Origin: Trichormus sp. ATA11-4-KO1
GTDB lineage: Bacteria > Cyanobacteriota > Cyanobacteriia > Cyanobacteriales > Nostocaceae
Assembly: GCA_019358915.1 (NCBI GenBank)
Contig: JAHHIM010000036.1
Location: 443,588-507,587 of the forward strand
DNA: 64,000 bases
Reading direction: 5' to 3'
The notes under the pieces were generated by a model that worked only from the letters and a program-made list of their open reading frames with translations, had not been told where the DNA came from and did no database searches. The position numbers and the translations under genes are program-made. Positions within the stretch are counted from its first letter, which is position 1, and each line of letters opens with the position of its first letter. Shown here one piece after another: positions 20,962 to 30,504 of this stretch.

Positions 20962-21816
20962 TCAAAAAGAATGATTATCATTGTGGAAAACTGTATATTT
21001 TATTTTCTGGAATTCTCTAGCTTCCTCTGGGTCGTATTTTCTACCTTGACAAAACTCATCTACCCAAGAAGCCAGACTACGAGCATTAGTACTGGGTGAT
21101 AGATTAACCTTACGGGGAATATCTTGTGGTTGTATCTTTACATAGTTGCCGTTTTCTAGAGAAGGTAGAGTTTTGGCTTTGCTGGGAACCTCAGTAGTAA
21201 TTGCCAGAGGCGATCGCACTGGATTATGTTGACGTAATAAGCCGGAAGGTGGCTTGGCAAAGTGTAGCATCTTGGCGGGAGATGGAGAAGTATCCTTAGT
21301 CGCAACAGCAACCGATGACACAAGTTTTTGTGTACGAATCACCTCAGTAGTAGCTGTAAAATATGACATAGGTTTGTGTGCCTGTGGCAAATCAGAGGTC
21401 AGCTTTTCCGAATGTAGGGTTTTGGCTGGAGAATGGGAAGCAATCTTAGTTGCAATTGCCACCAATGGTACAGTTTGACTCTCGGCACATTTATCTTGTA
21501 CAGAATCGCTTTCAACTTGGTTAGCAGCCGGAGAATGCTCGAATTTGATTAAACGTAACTCTTCATCAGGATTGAAGTTAAGACCTAAAGCTGCGACTAT
21601 CTTATCGGGATTGTCATTCAGATCCAGGATAAAAGGAAGTATTTCATCAAGCTGCGGCTCTAAAACCGACAAAGTAGCCAAAATAAACCCAGATGAAGGA
21701 CGACGCAGACCATTGTAGGTGCCCCAAACTCTCATTTTGACTAGCCAAGGACGATTTTGCTTGTAGTAACCCAGCCACTTCATTTTTAAAGATTGACGTA
21801 GCTGCTGAATATTCAT
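20962..21816 (-). CDS. DUF5331-like cyanobacterial protein
   Basis: MNIQQLRQSLK.KWL.YY.QNR.WL, RRPSSGFILATLS.LEP, low-complexity middle, LASWVDEFCQG. Start placed at ATG 21816. Confidence 0.75.
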   Translation of the reverse strand: MNIQQLRQSLKMKWLGYYKQNRPWLVKMRVWGTYNGLRRPSSGFILATLSVLEPQLDEILPFILDLNDNPDKIVAALGLNFNPDEELRLIKFEHSPAANQVESDSVQDKCAESQTVPLVAIATKIASHSPAKTLHSEKLTSDLPQAHKPMSYFTATTEVIRTQKLVSSVAVATKDTSPSPAKMLHFAKPPSGLLRQHNPVRSPLAITTEVPSKAKTLPSLENGNYVKIQPQDIPRKVNLSPSTNARSLASWVDEFCQGRKYDPEEAREFQKIKYTVFHNDNHSF

Positions 21817-21871
21817 TTGATGCCTCGCTTCAGTCAACAATTTGTGCAGTCTTTTGTATATGCAATTTGCT

Positions 21872-22204
21872 TTATCCCTGGGGATGAAACCGATAATAAA
21901 GCATCTGTTGAACACTTTTACCACTTAGCAAATGTTGTTCTACAACTAGAGGCACTTCATGGGGTCGAACGCCGCTATACCAAACCATGTCTGGTAATAC
22001 CAGTACCATCGGCCCGTTACCACATTGTCCTAAACAGCAGCTAGCCGTTACGGTCATATCAGGGATTGGTAAAGCGGCAAAAGCTGCTAATACCTTTGCT
22101 GCACCTTGCTTTTTACAAGTGCGATTTTGACATACTCGCACGCATTTAGAAGCAGAGGATGAATCTGTTTTTGGTAGTTGTGATGATTGATTTATATTTG
22201 TCAT
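21872..22204 (-). CDS. Thioredoxin-like (2Fe-2S) ferredoxin
   Basis: VCQNRTC..QG, CLGQCGNGPMV.V.P..VWY. The longer ORF N-terminus is repeat-derived, so the start is placed at ATG 22204. Confidence 0.85.
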   Translation of the reverse strand: MTNINQSSQLPKTDSSSASKCVRVCQNRTCKKQGAAKVLAAFAALPIPDMTVTASCCLGQCGNGPMVLVLPDMVWYSGVRPHEVPLVVEQHLLSGKSVQQMLYYRFHPQG

Positions 22205-22302: not shown

Positions 22303-23277
22303 TTAATCTACTGACAACCCTTTTGAGGCTAGCCATTCGCGGTTGAAGATTCGTGACTGATACCGGGAACCGCTATCACATAAAATGGTAACAATGGTGT
22401 GTCCTGGCCCTAACTGCTTTGCTAAAGCCACAGCAGCCCCAACATTAATACCAGTAGAACCGCCCATTAATAGCCCGTCTTTCCGCAGGAGTTGATAAAC
22501 AACCCGCAAAGCTTCTGTGTCATCTATCTGGATGGCATCATCAGTGGGTGCGCCTTCCATATTTGCAGTGACACGACTGTTACCAATGCCTTCGGTGATG
22601 GAATTACCCTCCATTTTGATTTCACCAGTTTTGATGTAGCTATAAAGTCCACTACCCAGGGGATCGGCAACTACGCATTTAACAGCCGGATTTTGTGATT
22701 TCAGATACAAGGCTACACCTGCAAAAGTACCTCCAGTACCAGTTGCAGCCGTCCAAGCGTCAATTTTACCGTTTGTCTGTGTCCAAATTTCCGGTCCTGT
22801 GGTTTCGTAGTGGGCGCGGCGGTTAGCTAAATTATCAAACTGATTTGCCCAAATTGCGTTATCTAACTCGGCGGCAATTCTCCCAGATAATTTGACGTAG
22901 TTATTGGGGTCTTTGTAGGGGACAGCCGGCACAGGACGCACTTCTGCACCCAAAGTCGTCAGTGCATCAATTTTTTCTTGGGATTGGGTATTAGGAATAA
23001 TAATCAGGCATTTGTAGCCTTTGGCGTTGCAAATATGTGCCAATCCGATGCCAGTATTCCCGGCGGTTCCTTCGACAACAGTGCCACCGGGTTTGAGTAG
23101 TCCCTTTTGCTCTGCATCTTCGACAATGTAAAGTGCAGCGCGGTCTTTGACGGAACCCCCAGGATTAAGAAATTCTGCTTTACCAAGGATTTCGCAACCT
23201 GTTTCTTCACTAAAGCTGTTTAAGCGAATTAGCGGTGTGTTGCCAACGGTGCCGACAAATCCATTTTTGATATCCAT
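22303..23277 (-). CDS. cysK: Cysteine synthase
   Basis: GNTPLIRL, NPGGSVKDR (PLP lysine), GTAGNTG, GTGGT, LCDSG.RY. Confidence 0.93.
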   Translation of the reverse strand: MDIKNGFVGTVGNTPLIRLNSFSEETGCEILGKAEFLNPGGSVKDRAALYIVEDAEQKGLLKPGGTVVEGTAGNTGIGLAHICNAKGYKCLIIIPNTQSQEKIDALTTLGAEVRPVPAVPYKDPNNYVKLSGRIAAELDNAIWANQFDNLANRRAHYETTGPEIWTQTNGKIDAWTAATGTGGTFAGVALYLKSQNPAVKCVVADPLGSGLYSYIKTGEIKMEGNSITEGIGNSRVTANMEGAPTDDAIQIDDTEALRVVYQLLRKDGLLMGGSTGINVGAAVALAKQLGPGHTIVTILCDSGSRYQSRIFNREWLASKGLSVD

Positions 23278-23444: not shown

Positions 23445-23660
23445 GATTAATTCATATTTCTATTTTGCAACGCTAGAAAAATTAATATAAAGATTTCTGG
23501 AAAGTAAGTGCAGCTTTGAGAAGCTAATTTCCGGTTCAGGTTAAGCAACCCACGACAGGATATTACTGAGCTTAGCAAATTTACATGTAAGCTAATATAC
23601 AATTGGGTTGGGTTGTGAGTACTGTTATCATTTCATTGTCTTTAGATGGAGTACAGACCG

Positions 23661-23987
23661 ATGACATCTCAAGATGACCGCCAAAAAGAACTAGAGCAAC
23701 GGGAACGCATACTGCGAGAACGAGAAGTTGAATTACGACTTCGGGAAATGGACGCTGACATCCATGCACCCAATGCACCTTTTCATAAAACTGTCAAGCA
23801 TCAGCCGGAAAACTCCCAAAAACCCTGGATGAAGAAACTGATTCTCGGGGGAAAGTTATTTGCTTTCGGCGTTGCGGCGCTGGTAGCGGTGAGAATAGCC
23901 TCAGCAGTTGCGGGGATAATGATTATCGCTGCGTTGGCGTGGATATCTTACAAATTATTTTGGGAATCAAAAAATAATCGTCGTTAA
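23661..23987 (+). CDS. Small protein with N-terminal coiled coil and two C-terminal TM helices; first gene of the dynamin operon
   Basis: E/R-rich helix, then two hydrophobic segments; 16 nt gap to the dynamin ATG. Confidence 0.8.
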   Translation: MTSQDDRQKELEQRERILREREVELRLREMDADIHAPNAPFHKTVKHQPENSQKPWMKKLILGGKLFAFGVAALVAVRIASAVAGIMIIAALAWISYKLFWESKNNRR

Positions 23988-24003
23988 TTACGAGGAAATT
24001 GTA

Positions 24004-26085
24004 ATGACTTATCAAGTCGGAACTGACAGATTCATCAACGACTTAGAACGAGTTGCTCAAGTGCGCTCAGAAATTTCTGTATGTCTGAGTAGCATCGCTG
24101 ATACCATAGATCAAGCAGAATTAGCAGGAGAATTTTCATCAGGCAAACTCAGCTTAGAACGAGATATAGAAGATATTAAAGCAGCTAGTAAAAACCTCAA
24201 AAAAGGTGTATTTCGTCTTTTGGTTTTAGGTGATATGAAACGGGGAAAAAGTACGTTTCTCAATGCCTTGATTGGAGAAAATTTACTGCCAAGTGATGTT
24301 AATCCCTGTACTGCTGTATTAACGATTTTACGTTATGGTTCAGAAAAAACAGTCACCATTCATTTTAATGATGGTAAAAGTCCCCAAAAGCTAGATTTTC
24401 AAAGTTTTAAATATAAATATACGATTGACCCAGCAGAAGCAAAAAAACTAGAACAAGAGAAAAAGCCAGCTTTTCCTGATGTTGATTATGCTGTTGTGGA
24501 GTATCCCTTACCACTACTAGAAAAAGGGATTGAAATTGTTGATAGTCCAGGGTTAAATGATACGGAAGCACGCAACGAATTATCTTTAGGATATGTCAAT
24601 AATTGCCATGCAATTTTGTTTGTGATGCGAGCTTCCCAACCTTGTACATTGGGGGAACGTCGCTATCTGGAAAATTATATTAAAGGTCGTGGTTTGAGTG
24701 TATTTTTCTTAGTCAACGCTTGGGATCAGGTGAGGGAATCTTTAATTGATCCTGACGATTTAGAAGAATTACAAGCATCTGAAGTCAGATTACGGCAAGT
24801 CTTCAAAGCCAATTTAGCAGATTATTGTTATGTAGATGGTCAGGATATTTACGACGAACGCGTATTTGAACTTTCATCAATTCAAGCGCTAAGGCGACGA
24901 CTGAAGAATCCCCAAGCTGATTTAGCCGGAACTGGCTTTCCAGAGTTTATGGGTTCTCTAAATACATTTCTTACCAGAGAACGGGCGATCGCGGAACTGC
25001 GTCAAGTCAGAACATTGGCCAGACAAGCTTGCAATCATACTCGCGAAGCAGTGGCTAGGCGTTTACCTTTACTCGACAAAGATGTCGATGAATTGAAAAA
25101 ACGCATCGATTCTGTAGAACCAGAGTTTAATAAACTCACAGGGATTCGAGATCAATTTCAAAAGGAAATTCTCAATACAAGAGATACCCAAGCAAGAAAA
25201 ATTTCCGAATCTTTTCGTGGCTACGTTTTAAATTTAGGTAATACTTTTGAAACAGATTTCTTACGCTATCAACCTGAGTTAAATGTCTTAGATTTTCTCA
25301 GTACTGGTAAACGAGAAGCATTTAACCTAGCGCTACAAAAAGCCTTTGAACAATATATAGCTGACAAAGCTGCGGCTTGGACTTTAACAGCTGAAAAAGA
25401 TATCAATGCGGCTTTTCGAGAACTTTCTCAGAGTGCTGCACAGTATGGCGCGTCTTACAGCCAAGTAACAGACCAAATTACAGAAAAGCTCACCGGACAA
25501 AAAGTTAATGTCAATACTACCAGCACATCAGAAGAAGACCAATCTCCTGGATGGGCAAAATGGGCAATGGGATTGTTATCTTTGTCTAGGGGAAACTTAG
25601 CAGGTGTGGCTTTAGCTGGTGCTGGCTTTGATTGGAAAAATATTTTGTTAAACTACTTTACTGTGATTGGCATTGGTGGGATATTGACAGCAGTTACAGG
25701 TATTTTTCTTGGCCCTATTGGATTTGCTTTGCTAGGTTTGGGAGTAGGATTTTTGCAAGCAGATCAAGCGCGTAAGGAGTTAGTCAAAACTGCGAAGAAG
25801 GAGTTAGTCAAATACTTACCACAAATAGCGCATGAGCAATCCCAAACTGTGTATGATGCAGTGAAAGAGTGTTTTGATAGTTACGAAAGAGAAGTTAGTC
25901 AACGAATTAATGATGATATTGCTTCTCGCAAATCTGAGTTAGATAATCTGGTGAAGCAAAAACAAACCCGTGAAATCAATCGTGAAAGTGAGTTACAGCG
26001 ATTAAAAAAATTACAGGAAGATGTCATAACGCAAATCCAGAAAATTGAGGCAGCATATAGTAATTTATTGGCTTATTATAGCTAA
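24004..26085 (+). CDS. Bacterial dynamin-like protein, BDLP1 orthologue (693 aa)
   Basis: G1 GDMKRGKS, G3 DSPG, G4 NAWD, Gly-rich paddle. Length and sequence match my recall of Nostoc punctiforme BDLP. Confidence 0.93.
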   Translation: MTYQVGTDRFINDLERVAQVRSEISVCLSSIADTIDQAELAGEFSSGKLSLERDIEDIKAASKNLKKGVFRLLVLGDMKRGKSTFLNALIGENLLPSDVNPCTAVLTILRYGSEKTVTIHFNDGKSPQKLDFQSFKYKYTIDPAEAKKLEQEKKPAFPDVDYAVVEYPLPLLEKGIEIVDSPGLNDTEARNELSLGYVNNCHAILFVMRASQPCTLGERRYLENYIKGRGLSVFFLVNAWDQVRESLIDPDDLEELQASEVRLRQVFKANLADYCYVDGQDIYDERVFELSSIQALRRRLKNPQADLAGTGFPEFMGSLNTFLTRERAIAELRQVRTLARQACNHTREAVARRLPLLDKDVDELKKRIDSVEPEFNKLTGIRDQFQKEILNTRDTQARKISESFRGYVLNLGNTFETDFLRYQPELNVLDFLSTGKREAFNLALQKAFEQYIADKAAAWTLTAEKDINAAFRELSQSAAQYGASYSQVTDQITEKLTGQKVNVNTTSTSEEDQSPGWAKWAMGLLSLSRGNLAGVALAGAGFDWKNILLNYFTVIGIGGILTAVTGIFLGPIGFALLGLGVGFLQADQARKELVKTAKKELVKYLPQIAHEQSQTVYDAVKECFDSYEREVSQRINDDIASRKSELDNLVKQKQTREINRESELQRLKKLQEDVITQIQKIEAAYSNLLAYYS

Positions 26086-26094
26086 TAAATTACA

Positions 26095-26127
26095 AGATTC
26101 CCGACTTCTTGAAGAAGTCGGGAATCT
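26095..26127. repeat. Perfect palindrome AGATTCCCGACTTCTT-G-AAGAAGTCGGGAATCT
   Basis: 16-bp inverted repeat between the two dynamin genes. Confidence 0.9.
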
Positions 26128-26156
26128 GAGTTTTTCCAATTTCAAATAGGGTAAAT

Positions 26157-28322
26157 ATGCAACAACAGAATGAAAGTTACAGGGATTTAGCAAATTCTCT
26201 CAAATCTGTATCTACATTACTGGAGTTAGAACGTCAATCACCACTGCATCAAGATATTCTTACTGTCTGCAATCATTTGGTTAATCCCAGTTTTCGTATT
26301 GCGGTTTTTGGCCCTTTTAATCATGGCAAATCTACTTTATTAAATGCCATGTTGGGAAATCGCACATTACCGATTGATTTAATTCCGACAACAGGCGCAG
26401 CGATTACTGTAAAGTATGGTTCTGATGTGCGGACTCGGATCATGTTGGTAGATGGTACAGAAATATATCGCAGTGGTACAGAAGTTTTACAACAATTTGC
26501 TATTCTTGACGGTAATAGACAGATGCGAAAAGATGTCGCGTCTGTAGAAGTTTTTTGTCCTCATCCTTTCTTAGCAACTGGTGTAGAATTTATCGATTTA
26601 CCGGGAACTAATGATAGGGAAGAACAAGATAATTTAGTTAGAGAACAACTTTTAAGTGTAGATTTAGTAGTCCAGTTATTGGATGCACGTAAGTTAATGA
26701 CTTTAGGTGAACGAGAAAACTTGCGAGATTGGTTATTAGATCGGGGTATTAAAACAGTTATATTTGTGGCTAATTTTTTGAATTTACTGGAACCAGAAGA
26801 GCAAAAACAAGTGCAAAACCGTTTGCTGTTTGTAGCAGAAAGTTTTCGTGCTGATTTACCTCCAGGTTTTAGTAATTTATATCGGGTTGATGCTTTACCG
26901 GCTTTAAGAGCTAGATTAAAAGGTGATGTTGCTGCTGCTAGTAGTAGTGGTTTAGTGGCGTTTGAAGCTGCTTTGCAAAATATTGCTGGTATTTTACAAC
27001 CAAATCGGGGTAGTGTAAGGTTGCCAAGGGCACAGGCGATCGCTTCTCAAATTCAATTATCACTAAAAGCTAAAATTGACCCTCTTGTTAATGAAATTAA
27101 AGTCTTTAATGATAAACAAAATGCTAAATTTGCAATAAAAGAAAAAGCTGCTAATTTAATTAATCAAGGCTTTGCTAAAAGTATAAAAGAGTTATGTGAT
27201 TGGCTGGCTTTATCTAATTTACTCGCAAAATATCAAGCTGATGGCGCTGTTGCATTGGCAGAAAATAACTTTAAAGCTTGGCAAGTAAATACACTTAAAA
27301 AAGACCTAACAGAGTTGCAATTAACTGTAGTCAAATGGCTTTATCAAGCTTACGAATTCTTTCAAGAAGAACGACCAGAAGATTTATTAATTCCTTTGCC
27401 TAGTGAACCACAAGTAATACTACCACCAAAGCCAAGTAATACCGATGATTTGAGTGAACCTGGTTCAATAGCTGTCGGCGGTGGAATTGGCTGGTTATTG
27501 GGTGGCCCTGTCGGTGCGGCTGTCGTTGGGAGTATTTCTTATTTATTAAATAAGAATATCCAAGAACAAGATGATAAATTAGCAAATGAATCTTATCATC
27601 AGCAAGTTGCTAAAGTTTGTATAGCAGCGATTGAGGATTATTTATCCCGCTTGAGTAATCAAGGATTAGCAATTTTAGCTGAGTATGAACTAAAAGCTGA
27701 AAAAATTATTCGCTTTACAATCAGCCAGGAAACGCCAGAAATTACTAAAAAATGGGAAGATTTGCAGCAATTACAAAATGGTTTCAATCAGTTTTTGCGA
27801 GAGTTAGAAAAAGTAAAATTATCTGGCAATTATCAACCTTATTTAGAAATATCAAAACCCCAAAATACTAAACGTGTATATATCCCTAAAAGAGTAAGAG
27901 TTCAAACTTCCTCGACCAAAAATACTGCTAACAATACTCAGACAAGGGTAGAATCTCCGCGTCCTAAAACTGCTCCCCGTCCACAAGAAGTAGACGCGAA
28001 ATTTCGCAATTGGGAACTAGATGAGGAGATAGCACGCATGAAAGCAGAAATGCGCTCTCCTAATTCATCTAAAAATCAAAGTAATAAAGCACCGAACCCA
28101 CCCAAAACCCAAGCAGAAAAAGATAAAATTGCTCACGCTTATAGTATTTTAGGATTAAAATCGAGCGCTTCTCTCGCTGAAGTCAAACAAACTTATCGAA
28201 ATTTAGTGAAAAAATGGCATCCAGATTTATTTGTAAATCAGCCGCAGATGCAAAAACAAGCTCACGAGAAAATGCGATTAGTTAATGAGGCTTATAGAAT
28301 ATTAAGTTCGCTAGGGATTTAA
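26157..28322 (+). CDS. Second dynamin-like GTPase with a C-terminal DnaJ domain
   Basis: G1 GPFNHGKS, G3 DLPG, Gly-zipper paddle, and J-domain AYSILGL...YRNLVKKWHPD...VNEAY.IL. Confidence 0.9.
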   Translation: MQQQNESYRDLANSLKSVSTLLELERQSPLHQDILTVCNHLVNPSFRIAVFGPFNHGKSTLLNAMLGNRTLPIDLIPTTGAAITVKYGSDVRTRIMLVDGTEIYRSGTEVLQQFAILDGNRQMRKDVASVEVFCPHPFLATGVEFIDLPGTNDREEQDNLVREQLLSVDLVVQLLDARKLMTLGERENLRDWLLDRGIKTVIFVANFLNLLEPEEQKQVQNRLLFVAESFRADLPPGFSNLYRVDALPALRARLKGDVAAASSSGLVAFEAALQNIAGILQPNRGSVRLPRAQAIASQIQLSLKAKIDPLVNEIKVFNDKQNAKFAIKEKAANLINQGFAKSIKELCDWLALSNLLAKYQADGAVALAENNFKAWQVNTLKKDLTELQLTVVKWLYQAYEFFQEERPEDLLIPLPSEPQVILPPKPSNTDDLSEPGSIAVGGGIGWLLGGPVGAAVVGSISYLLNKNIQEQDDKLANESYHQQVAKVCIAAIEDYLSRLSNQGLAILAEYELKAEKIIRFTISQETPEITKKWEDLQQLQNGFNQFLRELEKVKLSGNYQPYLEISKPQNTKRVYIPKRVRVQTSSTKNTANNTQTRVESPRPKTAPRPQEVDAKFRNWELDEEIARMKAEMRSPNSSKNQSNKAPNPPKTQAEKDKIAHAYSILGLKSSASLAEVKQTYRNLVKKWHPDLFVNQPQMQKQAHEKMRLVNEAYRILSSLGI

Positions 28323-28907
28323 AATAATAGTCAAATCTATAACAAAACCAGGCAAAACTTCTTCACCGGAAAGTTGAGGAGGGTTATTAAAAGAAAAATT
28401 TAAAACTTCTACATCTTGTCCTGGTCGATAAATTTCTACTAAAGGCGTTTGCGGGTCAATTAACCAACCTAAACGCGCACCATTTTCTTGATATTCCCGC
28501 ATTTTAGCGCGTAACTTATCTAAACGATCGCTTTCTGAGGGCAGTTCAATGACAAAATCAGGACAAATAGGCGGAAAACGTCGTTTTTCATCTTGCGTTA
28601 ATGCTTCCCAACGTTCTAACTTTATCCAAGCCGCATCAGGACAGCGATAAGCACCATTGGGTAATTTGAATTCGGTGGAAGAGTCAAAGACTTTCCCTGA
28701 TTTGGTTTGACGGTTCCATAAATTTAAATCTGTTGTTAAATCAGAATTTCTAATTCCACTTTCTCCGCCTGTGGGAGGCATAATGATTAATTCTCCAGTC
28801 TGGGTAAGTTCTAATTGCCAAGGTTCGTTAGCAATGCAGAGTTGATAAAATTGCTCATCGGTTAAACCTACTGCTGGAGGTACGTTTAAAGTGAGGGTTT
28901 CCATCAT
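28311..28907 (-). CDS. Uma2 family (DUF820) endonuclease-fold protein
   Basis: GELIIMPPTGG, PDAAW, CPDFVIEL, GARLGWLIDP, GEEVLPGF. Confidence 0.9.
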   Translation of the reverse strand: MMETLTLNVPPAVGLTDEQFYQLCIANEPWQLELTQTGELIIMPPTGGESGIRNSDLTTDLNLWNRQTKSGKVFDSSTEFKLPNGAYRCPDAAWIKLERWEALTQDEKRRFPPICPDFVIELPSESDRLDKLRAKMREYQENGARLGWLIDPQTPLVEIYRPGQDVEVLNFSFNNPPQLSGEEVLPGFVIDLTIILNP

Positions 28908-28978
28908 GATGTTTTACCAAAGGAGTTAATTCTATTATCGTGGGTGAAAATTATAAGTAGAATGTAAGATAAATTTTT

Positions 28979-29043
28979 GTTCGTAATAGGCGATTTATCG
29001 CTTTCTTACAAGATTTTAAAGGCTAGAGCCACTGACTACGAAC
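28979..29043. repeat. Degenerate REP/MITE-like element GTTCGTAAT...ACTACGAAC
   Basis: 9-bp terminal inverted repeat with 1 mismatch, between the two Uma2 genes. Confidence 0.5.
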
Positions 29044-29132
29044 TTTTATTTTATTAAGTCTTACTACTTAATTGCTATATCCAACCTCAGTAATTGGCTG
29101 GACATGAAATTACACATTCATGGAAGAATCAG

Positions 29133-29717
29133 CTACCAAATTTTACTCATATTCAAGATAAATCCAGGTAACACAGGGTCAGCGTTAATAGTATCAGGAT
29201 TATCTAGACATGCAACTGGTTTTCCAGGAGAATAAATATAAACTTGGCGATGTTTGCGGTCAATTAACCAGCCTAATTGTATTCCTGGTTCCTGCATATC
29301 TTCCTCCATTTTTTCCTGCAAAAGTTGGAGGCGATCGCTCGGTGATCTCAGTTCAATGATAAAATCTGGACAAATAGGGGCAAATTTTTGTTTTTGTGCA
29401 GATGATAGAGTATTCCACCGTTCGAGTTTCATCCAGGACGCATCGGGAGAACGTTCTGCACGTGTTGATAGTTTAAATCCTGTGCTGGAGTCAAAACAAA
29501 TACCCGTACCATCTTGTTCTGCCCACACTCCTAATTGTACAGCAACATTAAAGTTCCGATTGCCTGTTTCTGAACCTGTAGGCGGCATAATTGATATTTC
29601 TCCCAACTTATTCCGTTCAATGCGTAAGTCACGGTTAAACTGACAGAACTCAAAGAATTGTTCGTCTGTCATTTGTATTGATGGTGGAAATTGCAGCACC
29701 AAGGGAGATGAAAACAT
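29133..29717 (-). CDS. Uma2 family (DUF820) endonuclease-fold protein
   Basis: IMPPTGSETG, SPDASW, CPDFIIELRSPSD, LGWLID. Start placed at ATG 29717. Confidence 0.88.
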   Translation of the reverse strand: MFSSPLVLQFPPSIQMTDEQFFEFCQFNRDLRIERNKLGEISIMPPTGSETGNRNFNVAVQLGVWAEQDGTGICFDSSTGFKLSTRAERSPDASWMKLERWNTLSSAQKQKFAPICPDFIIELRSPSDRLQLLQEKMEEDMQEPGIQLGWLIDRKHRQVYIYSPGKPVACLDNPDTINADPVLPGFILNMSKIW

Positions 29718-29750
29718 ATGCTGACCCGAATAGGCTTTATCTTTATTCTC

Positions 29751-29797
29751 ACGCAAAGACGCAAAGACGCCAAGCTATAACTTTGCGTCTTTGCGTC
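29751..29797. repeat. Inverted octamer repeats ACGCAAAG / CTTTGCGT
   Basis: Read directly; the same family occurs at about 23375 and 34997. Confidence 0.75.
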
Positions 29798-29865: not shown

Positions 29866-30504
29866 TTATTTATTAGGCTGAGGAGTCATTCGCAAATAAG
29901 GTTTGATTTCCTGGTAACCTTTGGGGAATTTTTCTTTGAGTACTTCTGGATCTTTGAGTGAGGGGACGATCACGCAATCTTCACCGTCTTTCCAGTCGGC
30001 TGGTGTAGCTACGCTGTAATTATCGGTTAATTGCAATGAATCAATTACCCGCAAAAGTTCATCAAAGTTGCGTCCGGTGCTTGGGGGATAGGTGAAAGTT
30101 AGACGCAGTTTTTTGTTAGGGTCAATGACAAAAACCGATCGCACTGTCACGCTAGCAGCAGCATTCGGGTGAATCATGTCGTAAAGGTCAGATACTTTAC
30201 GATCGCCATCGGCCAAAATTGGGTAGTTGAGAGTAGTGCTTTGAGTTTCTTCAATGTCTCCTACCCATCCATTGTGGGAGTCAACATCATCAACGCTGAG
30301 TGCGATCGCTTTGACATTACGCTTGTCAAATTCTGGCTTCAGTTTGGCAACTGTGCCTAACTCGGTTGTGCAGACTGGTGTAAAGTCAGCAGGGTGGGAA
30401 AACAGCACTACCCAGCTGTCACCTGCCCATTCGTAAAAGTTGATGTCGCCGTGTGTAGAGGCTTGCGTAAAATTGGGTACTGTATCACCAAGACGGAGAG
30501 TCAT
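29866..30504 (-). CDS. 1-Cys peroxiredoxin (Prx6 family)
   Basis: FSHPADFTPVCTTE, YP.STGRNFDE, ATPADW. Confidence 0.95.
   Translation of the reverse strand: MTLRLGDTVPNFTQASTHGDINFYEWAGDSWVVLFSHPADFTPVCTTELGTVAKLKPEFDKRNVKAIALSVDDVDSHNGWVGDIEETQSTTLNYPILADGDRKVSDLYDMIHPNAAASVTVRSVFVIDPNKKLRLTFTYPPSTGRNFDELLRVIDSLQLTDNYSVATPADWKDGEDCVIVPSLKDPEVLKEKFPKGYQEIKPYLRMTPQPNK

Follow-up and report, generated by a model that had tools for sequence, protein, structure and literature searches.

How does a bacterial membrane-shaping dynamin come to carry a co-chaperone domain, and on which polymer would the recruited chaperone act? This question is raised by a putative three-gene operon of Trichormus sp. 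ATA11-4-KO1, which lies within a window of 64,000 nucleotides (nt; the whole stretch of DNA analyzed, contig JAHHIM010000036.1, positions 443,588 to 507,587 of the forward strand) and encodes a small membrane protein, an orthologue of the dynamin-like protein (DLP) BDLP1 and a second DLP, here called DLP2, that terminates in a J-domain. The disordered linker in front of this J-domain holds an isolated helix resembling helix α5 of the bacterial ESCRT-III proteins Vipp1 and PspA, and this α5-like helix is our main finding. The three open reading frames (ORFs) are separated by gaps of 16 and 71 nt, just as the initial annotation of this DNA had described them; their order is conserved in relatives:

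23661..23987, + strand: small membrane protein of 108 amino acids (aa), whose charged, coiled-coil-like N-terminal part is followed by a hydrophobic stretch; a cyanobacterial family
24004..26085, + strand: BDLP1 orthologue of 693 aa, the 'Tandem B' member, matching Nostoc punctiforme BDLP1 (PDB 2J68)
26157..28322, + strand: DLP2 of 721 aa, the 'Tandem A' partner, with BDLP-like core, disordered linker, α5-like helix and J-domain
27981..28052, + strand: isolated conserved helix of 24 residues (DLP2 aa 609-632), matching the C-terminal helix of TIGR04376 and α5 of Vipp1/PspA
28110..28310, + strand: J-domain (DLP2 aa 652-718) with its HPD motif at 28218-28226

The dynamin pair and its fusion to a J-domain are already in print, and the locus is of a known kind. 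Gene 2 is the orthologue of N. punctiforme BDLP1 (Npun_R6513, PDB 2J68/2J69/2W6D), and gene 3 is, by position and domain order, the orthologue of its J-fused neighbor (Npun_R6512, UniProt B2IZD2). According to the accessible text of Liu, Noel & Low 2018 (PMC6104087), this neighbor carries at its C-terminus a DnaJ-like domain, which might bind DnaK or dimerize with BDLP1, so that the chaperone-coupled architecture, which the initial annotation took to be uncharacterized, had been proposed before; the clades Tandem A and B are defined, and the DnaJ-like neighbor is listed, in the accessible part of Jilly et al. 2018 (PMC5827413). New here are the link between small gene and BDLP1, the occurrence of the J-domain in fused, split and absent states, an asparagine in the G4 motif of DLP2 and, above all, the α5-like helix: in the accessible portions of the Tandem A/B literature we found nothing about the membrane gene upstream, about a J-domain that is split off or absent, about the helix or about the G4 asparagine.

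DLP2 consists of a dynamin G-domain (Dynamin_N, PF00350, aa 48-206, E 4.5e-26) and a helical neck and trunk with a weakly hydrophobic tip, as is characteristic of bacterial dynamin-like proteins, and it ends, as the initial annotation had recognized, in an intact J-domain (DnaJ, PF00226, aa 661-717, E 4.6e-14). Its AlphaFold model (mean predicted local distance difference test, pLDDT, 76; predicted template modelling score, pTM, 0.47) comprises a BDLP-like core up to about aa 552, a linker in which one free helix (aa 609-632, pLDDT about 63-65) is predicted between disordered segments, and a class C type J fold with HPD, whose helices lie within aa 652-718. The top fold matches of the model are BDLP (2J69/2J68), IniA and the mitofusin MFN2.

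The linker helix forms an island of conservation in otherwise variable surroundings, with a mean column identity of 0.81 versus 0.51 and 0.62 in the flanks (73 fused proteins). When a hidden Markov model (HMM) of this island was run against the 12,325 ORFs of its own genome, the best non-self match was the last helix of the protein family TIGR04376 (E 5.9e-5), whereas 20 column-shuffled control HMMs gave best E-values of 0.12-10. In the reverse direction, the TIGR04376 profile returned the DLP2 linker as its second match in this genome (E 7.5e-4), and a 47-aa piece of the linker found TIGR04376 as its sole match among 18,950 NCBIfam models (positions 166-189 of 189, E 0.0045). Profile comparison by hhalign aligned the helix to residues 167-190 of TIGR04376 at 97.4% and to α5 of Vipp1/PspA (191-216) at 92.3%, in pattern-selected windows. 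Column counts were taken on full-length alignments free of any pattern selection (fused DLP2 n = 73, TIGR04376 n = 36, Vipp1 plus PspA n = 22): F616, E620, E624 and K629 are each found in 73/73 fused DLP2 proteins and at the matching positions of 36/36 TIGR04376 proteins; W619 is kept in 72/73 and 35/36, and W or L occupies this column in 73/73, 36/36 and, for Vipp1 plus PspA, 22/22. The Vipp1/PspA counterparts F197, L200 and K213 are invariant (22/22) and the equivalent of E624 is present in 21/22. F616 and W619 are the equivalents of Vipp1 F197 and L200, and the DLP2 tail thereby displays an α5 helix with conserved hairpin-binding residues. Together, profile matches and column counts show the linker helix, as judged from its sequence, to be homologous to α5 of Vipp1/PspA. 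In the accessible part of the Vipp1 work (PMC8281802), α5 binds the hairpin tip of neighboring subunits and its removal abolishes rings and filaments, while the double exchange F197K/L200K severely inhibits self-assembly. The DLP2 tail is devoid of an α1-α2/3 hairpin, and a PF04012 search gave no match at the locus.

The family to which the helix is most similar is itself related to Vipp1 and PspA, and the own genome contains one member:

G000:C36:339100-339672 (locus L122/L153), - strand: TIGR04376 protein (281 bits), about 128 kb from the operon

TIGR04376 scores below the PF04012 cut-off and aligns along Vipp1/PspA with α4 missing (hhalign 96.6-98.1%). The structure model contains helices at 4-21, 23-79, 82-155 and 167-190, displays α0, the hairpin and α5 in a Vipp1-like fold and, when compared by Foldseek, has Vipp1/PspA structures as its 16 top rows; TIGR04376 is thus shown, at the level of a predicted structure, to be an α4-less paralogue with PspA/Vipp1 fold. 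Both hhalign and NCBIfam place its last helix on α5. The gene is single-copy in 91/221 genomes of a sample drawn across the phylum, in which related genomes are not independent of each other; we found no paper under the name TIGR04376. A further PspA-related gene was seen elsewhere in the own genome (L121:1495-2295, - strand, G000:C55): it encodes a protein of 266 aa whose long N-terminal half is hydrophobic and rich in Gly and Ala and whose C-terminal part resembles a fragment of the PspA hairpin, and a weak J-domain match (C55:168496-168600) lies about 360 nt away.

Helix and J-domain occur together in three states: fused to DLP2, split off as a separate gene, or absent. Of 291 BDLP1 loci, the best 80 were analyzed, a selection in which Nostocales are overrepresented; all 72 full-length DLP2 proteins among them (72/72) end in a J-domain. 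The related loci also assign the window to the Nostocales. HPD is kept in 71/72 of them and in 18/18 stand-alone J proteins; the single fused DLP2 at L097 has HHD in its place. Beyond the family to which the window belongs, all DLP2 proteins of the phylum sample (14/14) are J-less and stop at about 540-580 aa, as does the DLP2 of G022 inside this family. A search of 351 genomes of the order with a profile of three stand-alone J proteins matched 38, of which three J-only partial matches were dropped, leaving 13 fused and 22 stand-alone modules. DLP2 is present in 126 of these genomes and the module, at E 1e-20 or better, in 32 of the 126; conversely, 32/35 module genomes have DLP2. The stand-alone module is a single gene of 108-146 aa that holds helix and J-domain, and 19 of the 21 inspected genes (a count that leaves out G351) lie directly downstream of a J-less DLP2, the exceptions being G115 and G285. 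In G115 the helix-J gene (L199:1492-1821) is an orphan, no DLP2 having been found in the genome. Thus, the module is fused to DLP2 in Nostocales, is a separate gene just downstream of it in other families, and stands beside or is fused to DLP2 in five or more families. Among 12 representative matches, the architectures combining helix and J-domain are stand-alone proteins, DLP2 or fragments thereof, and one protein of 177 aa (P0265) whose N-terminus is unrelated. The α5 positions are kept in both the fused and the split form, and in some stand-alone proteins the helix is tandemly duplicated, as would be expected of a binding repeat; there are two full copies in G441 and a partial second copy in G455, G432 and G285:

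L292, L293, L294, L295: stand-alone J proteins with repeated α5-like helix

In a tree of DLP2 cores (24 of the 72 fused, 17 split, 17 J-less), all fused proteins fall into one 100/100 group with G022 nested inside, which fits a single fusion in Nostocales followed by a later loss in G022, a direction that we infer on a midpoint root. Two simpler descriptions were rejected: the J-domain is not an addition confined to Nostocales, since split genes were found, and the module is not universal in the dynamin pair, since most DLP2 loci do without it. An Atlas search with a stand-alone helix-J protein returned only generic DnaJ leads (under 0.9).

What, then, would the module do? Most simply, it would be a targeting helix joined to a DnaK-activating J-domain; the DLP2 J-domain is predicted to stimulate DnaK, and five full-length Hsp70 matches are present in the own genome. 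We consider it a serious possibility, if short of a probable one, that the α5-like helix docks on the hairpin of a PspA-family protein and that the J-domain delivers DnaK there. A PspA-family hairpin is favored as the target because the α5 positions are kept in fused and split forms and because the helix is retained after the fusion and is sometimes duplicated; retention of the helix after its fusion to DLP2 moreover makes it unlikely that the target is solely the own DLP2 chain. More tentatively, we propose that the module is a co-chaperone, either fused to the dynamin pair or transcribed along with it, that mimics ESCRT-III α5, plugs into such a hairpin (TIGR04376 or Vipp1/PspA) and recruits DnaK. 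In this mechanism, DLP2 would bind BDLP1 and the pair would remodel the membrane, with the small protein anchoring BDLP1; the helix of the DLP2 module would dock on a PspA/Vipp1-family hairpin, most likely that of TIGR04376; the J-domain would deliver DnaK to the PspA-family polymer and stimulate it; and DnaK would cap or dismantle this polymer at the membrane site being remodeled by the dynamins, presumably in the setting of membrane-stress repair. The initial annotation had instead drawn an analogy to auxilin, which presumes the dynamin polymer to be the DnaK client; the helix points at least equally to a client of the PspA/Vipp1 family. An action of DnaK on this family has a precedent, because the chloroplast J protein CDJ2 acts together with Hsp70 on Vipp1 polymers (PMC13051332, accessible part). 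The same text states that Hsp70 and J proteins are known Vipp1 partners and that direct homologues of the remaining ESCRT proteins of eukaryotes are missing from cyanobacteria. The accessible parts of two surveys of phage shock protein (PSP) and ESCRT-III systems contain no mention of DnaJ or DnaK (PMC11237479) and none of DnaK, Hsp70 or dynamin (PMC7619361). We found no paper joining a bacterial dynamin, a Vipp1 interaction and DnaJ, subscription papers being outside our reach, and no description of the α5-like helix, where the subscription papers (among them the 2006 BDLP paper and a 2016 review on bacterial membrane remodeling) and bioRxiv supplements were likewise out of reach.

Several observations weigh against a PspA-family client. 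With no more than 24 residues, the match is short and lies in a helix that is charged and amphipathic, the windows for profile comparison were selected with a pattern that includes F, W and E, direct genome matches of the helix HMM to Vipp1 and PspA are not significant (E 0.6 and 4), and plain HMMER alignment put the last helix of TIGR04376 on α4 of Vipp1 rather than on α5. The genomic context is no more favorable: DLP2 and TIGR04376 co-occur without signal (60 of the 91 TIGR04376 genomes are without DLP2), the TIGR04376 gene of the own genome is remote from the operon at the distance given above, and G474 has the module, yet its TIGR04376 appears split near residue 144. No PspA-family gene was seen beside the operon in 18 wider split loci (L280-L297), where matches to the TIGR04376 profile fall only on the small J genes. 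The genomic partner of the module is DLP2, which would equally fit a dynamin client, and in the split form a helix on PspA and a J-domain on DnaK would leave no obvious tie to the dynamins. Finally, about three quarters of the DLP2 genomes show no module, and neither J-domain nor helix was found within about 2 kb downstream in 20/20 further DLP2 loci. The J module is tied to DLP2, whether fused or directly downstream, and the J part is not a core component of the pair.

A dynamin client remains a close rival because DLP2 is the sole genomic partner and no PspA-family gene was seen nearby. It is possible that the module is an auxilin-like co-chaperone in which the borrowed PspA-like helix now binds a helical bundle of BDLP1 or DLP2, DnaK assembling the BDLP1 filament or stripping it: the module is fused to DLP2 or directly follows it in nearly all inspected cases, and once split off it has, apart from the J-domain, the helix alone as a conserved part that could find the dynamins. 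A helper for BDLP1 is also plausible because, in the accessible part of a recent preprint (bioRxiv 10.1101/2025.05.27.656310), BDLP1 alone forms stable scaffolds with weak stimulation of its GTPase and performs neither fission nor fusion. A repurposed helix would, however, be expected to drift, whereas the invariant α5 positions persist in fused and split proteins alike, and most DLP2 loci work without the module. In class B J proteins, helix V folds as a lid on the J-domain, and the acidic linker helix could similarly be an autoinhibitory lid that covers the basic side of the J-domain next to it, freed by binding to membrane or polymer; the two do travel together, the helix always preceding the J-domain with a short disordered linker in between. 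We regard such a lid as unlikely, given that it would need neither the tandem duplication of the helix nor the conservation of the α5 positions and that the confidence of the model is moderate at the helix, with the pTM given above.

The resemblance to α5 might even be a convergence of charged amphipathic patterns, with the J module acting as a generic co-regulated stress co-chaperone. The shortness of the match, its modest E-values (5.9e-5, 7.5e-4, 0.0045) and the lack of the module in most DLP2 loci agree with this reading, which is nevertheless very unlikely in view of matches that are reciprocal and unique, shuffled controls that fail, and a module that stays with DLP2 across families. According to a proposal in the accessible text of Liu et al. 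2018 (PMC6104087), the J-domain, with or without the helix, would mainly serve assembly and join DLP2 to BDLP1, in the manner of the Campylobacter DLP1 assembly domain, binding of DnaK being secondary. All 31 DLP2 genomes of the phylum sample indeed have BDLP1, and coordinates place the two genes adjacent in 29. The dynamin pair persists J-less in most lineages, however, a separate J gene cannot tether DLP2 covalently, and HPD is almost invariably retained, which makes a mere assembly domain quite unlikely. We keep docking on a PspA-family hairpin as the preferred reading, next to an auxilin-like action on the dynamins.

The dynamins themselves are best described by comparing their nucleotide-binding and membrane-facing segments:

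24229-24255, + strand: P-loop of BDLP1
24715-24726, + strand: G4 motif N-A-W-D of BDLP1
BDLP1 aa 546-586, + strand: hydrophobic paddle
26772..26783, + strand: G4 motif N-F-L-N of DLP2, with Asn where BDLP1 has Asp
27468..27548, + strand: segment rich in Gly and weakly hydrophobic, at the tip of the trunk (DLP2 aa 438-464)

Gene 2 had been annotated as BDLP1, which is borne out by a match of 1375 bits to the N. punctiforme protein over residues 1-693, that is, full-length orthology, and by PF21808 (E 4e-185). N. punctiforme BDLP1 exhibits GTP-dependent membrane tubulation, and the accessible part of the preprint cited above suggests partner DLPs for the scissionless protein (10.1101/2025.05.27.656310); the product of gene 2 is predicted to tubulate membranes in the same way. 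Its G4 motif is N-A-W-D in 118/123 BDLP1 proteins. DLP2 has the G1, G2 and G3 motifs, and its G4 reads N-F-[LIMT]-N in 92/108 DLP2 proteins, the remaining 16 being not parsed; N206, F207 and N209 do not vary among the 57 DLP2 proteins aligned. In other GTPases, an exchange of Asp to Asn in G4 weakens or switches guanine recognition, and DLP2 may therefore be the regulatory member of the pair. Its segment aa 438-464 is likely a membrane paddle, and by analogy to other bacterial DLPs, BDLP1 and DLP2 likely form a heterotypic membrane-remodeling pair. Two tandem BDLP1 paralogues precede DLP2 in 13 of the 18 wider split-J loci (e.g., G368:C76, G383:C80, G474:C27, G441:C126), where the order, as far as the flank reaches, is small gene, BDLP1a, BDLP1b, DLP2, helix-J. 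G028 has two BDLP1 paralogues and no J gene. A divergent second DLP pair was seen in G020 (L223:6111-8618, - strand), whose BDLP1-like member (835 aa) is extended at its N-terminus by a stretch in which pairs of Cys suggest a zinc ribbon.

The small gene is closely tied to BDLP1, in keeping with the initial annotation: it lies upstream of BDLP1 in 71/80 loci and, in the phylum sample (33 genomes with BDLP1, 31 with DLP2 and 33 with the small gene), directly upstream in 30/33 BDLP1 genomes, a link that extends over five families. Of the nine loci without it, six are titled Rivularia or Calothrix and two have <800 nt of upstream DNA. Three BDLP1 genomes of the sample are without the small gene, and three small genes occur without BDLP1: two precede remnants of BDLP1 and DLP2, and one has internal stops. 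At L244 and L245 (G118, G181), the operon is reduced to short BDLP1 and DLP2 remnants and the ORF of the small gene is intact. The likely start is the ATG at 23661, because the database protein and most homologues have 108 aa and GGAG stands just upstream; an alternative in-frame ATG at 23646 would yield 113 aa. The single continuous hydrophobic stretch of the protein (aa 59-101, about 23835-23963) may fold into two membrane helices. Its match to DUF3040 (17.3 bits) is below the Pfam gathering cut-off of 24.7; PF11239 is carried by many homologues and by 11-25% of Atlas cluster members, and an Atlas search matched only cyanobacterial hypothetical clusters. From its position and sequence, the small protein is likely a membrane anchor or adaptor of BDLP1.

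The remaining elements of the locus are as follows:

26095..26127, strand not assigned: 33-nt palindrome in the BDLP1-DLP2 gap, a terminator-like dispersed genomic repeat not specific to the operon
20962-21924, 22303-23277, 28311-29756 and 29866-30504 of the window, all on the - strand: flanking genes

The palindrome was rejected as an operon-specific element: it has 18 copies in the genome at <=5 mismatches, and a similar sequence is present in only 7/75 orthologous gaps, which measure 26-2140 nt (median 159). Its terminator-like score is a caveat on the co-transcription of BDLP1 and DLP2. A promoter scan was uninformative, with 5 sites versus 13.6 expected. The locus is flanked upstream by a divergent PALP-family enzyme, which we take to be cysteine synthase-like, and downstream by two Uma2-type genes (one of them domain-scanned) and a presumably peroxiredoxin-like gene; this order recurs in other Nostocales. 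Membership in a defense system was not accepted, PADLOC having returned weak matches only (LeoA, LeoBC, LeoB, mad8), and phage carriage of the helix-J module could not be confirmed in any of the viral contigs searched.

These findings bear on BDLP1, which, once purified, tubulates membranes without cutting or fusing them (10.1101/2025.05.27.656310, accessible part). Missing from the experiments on BDLP1 are the small membrane protein, DLP2 with its unusual G4 motif, often a second BDLP1 paralogue, and the helix-J module. If the proposed mechanism is true, a J protein bearing a copy of the helix that locks the polymer would account for the targeting of DnaK to such polymers, a physical link would exist between Hsp70 and the dynamins and ESCRT-III of bacteria, tying together two membrane-remodeling systems, and the module would be a candidate bacterial stand-in for disassembly of the Vps4 type. 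The α5-like helix makes this link directly testable, the stand-alone protein being small (about 110 aa).

Among known systems, the DLP pairs of Campylobacter (DLP1/DLP2), Bacillus (DynA), Mycobacterium (IniA/IniC) and E. coli (LeoABC) share with the present locus side-by-side DLP genes and a BDLP-like fold; in the accessible descriptions of these pairs, neither a J-domain nor an α5-like helix is reported, and the assembly domain of Campylobacter DLP1 is N-terminal, unlike the C-terminal module of DLP2. With Vipp1/PspA and TIGR04376, DLP2 shares the 24-aa helix, which aligns to α5 and keeps the equivalents of F197 and L200. DLP2 has this helix only and no hairpin and is consequently not an ESCRT-III subunit; moreover, α5 of Vipp1/PspA contains an insert of 3-4 residues that is missing from both the DLP2 helix and TIGR04376. 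Auxilin and Hsc70 act on clathrin. The likeness of the DLP2 module to this system, and to the action of CDJ2-HSP70B on VIPP1, consists in the combination of a J-domain with a targeting element by which Hsp70 is led to a membrane-shaping polymer. Unlike in these systems, the J-domain is here located on or beside a dynamin-like GTPase, and its targeting element resembles a piece of ESCRT-III.

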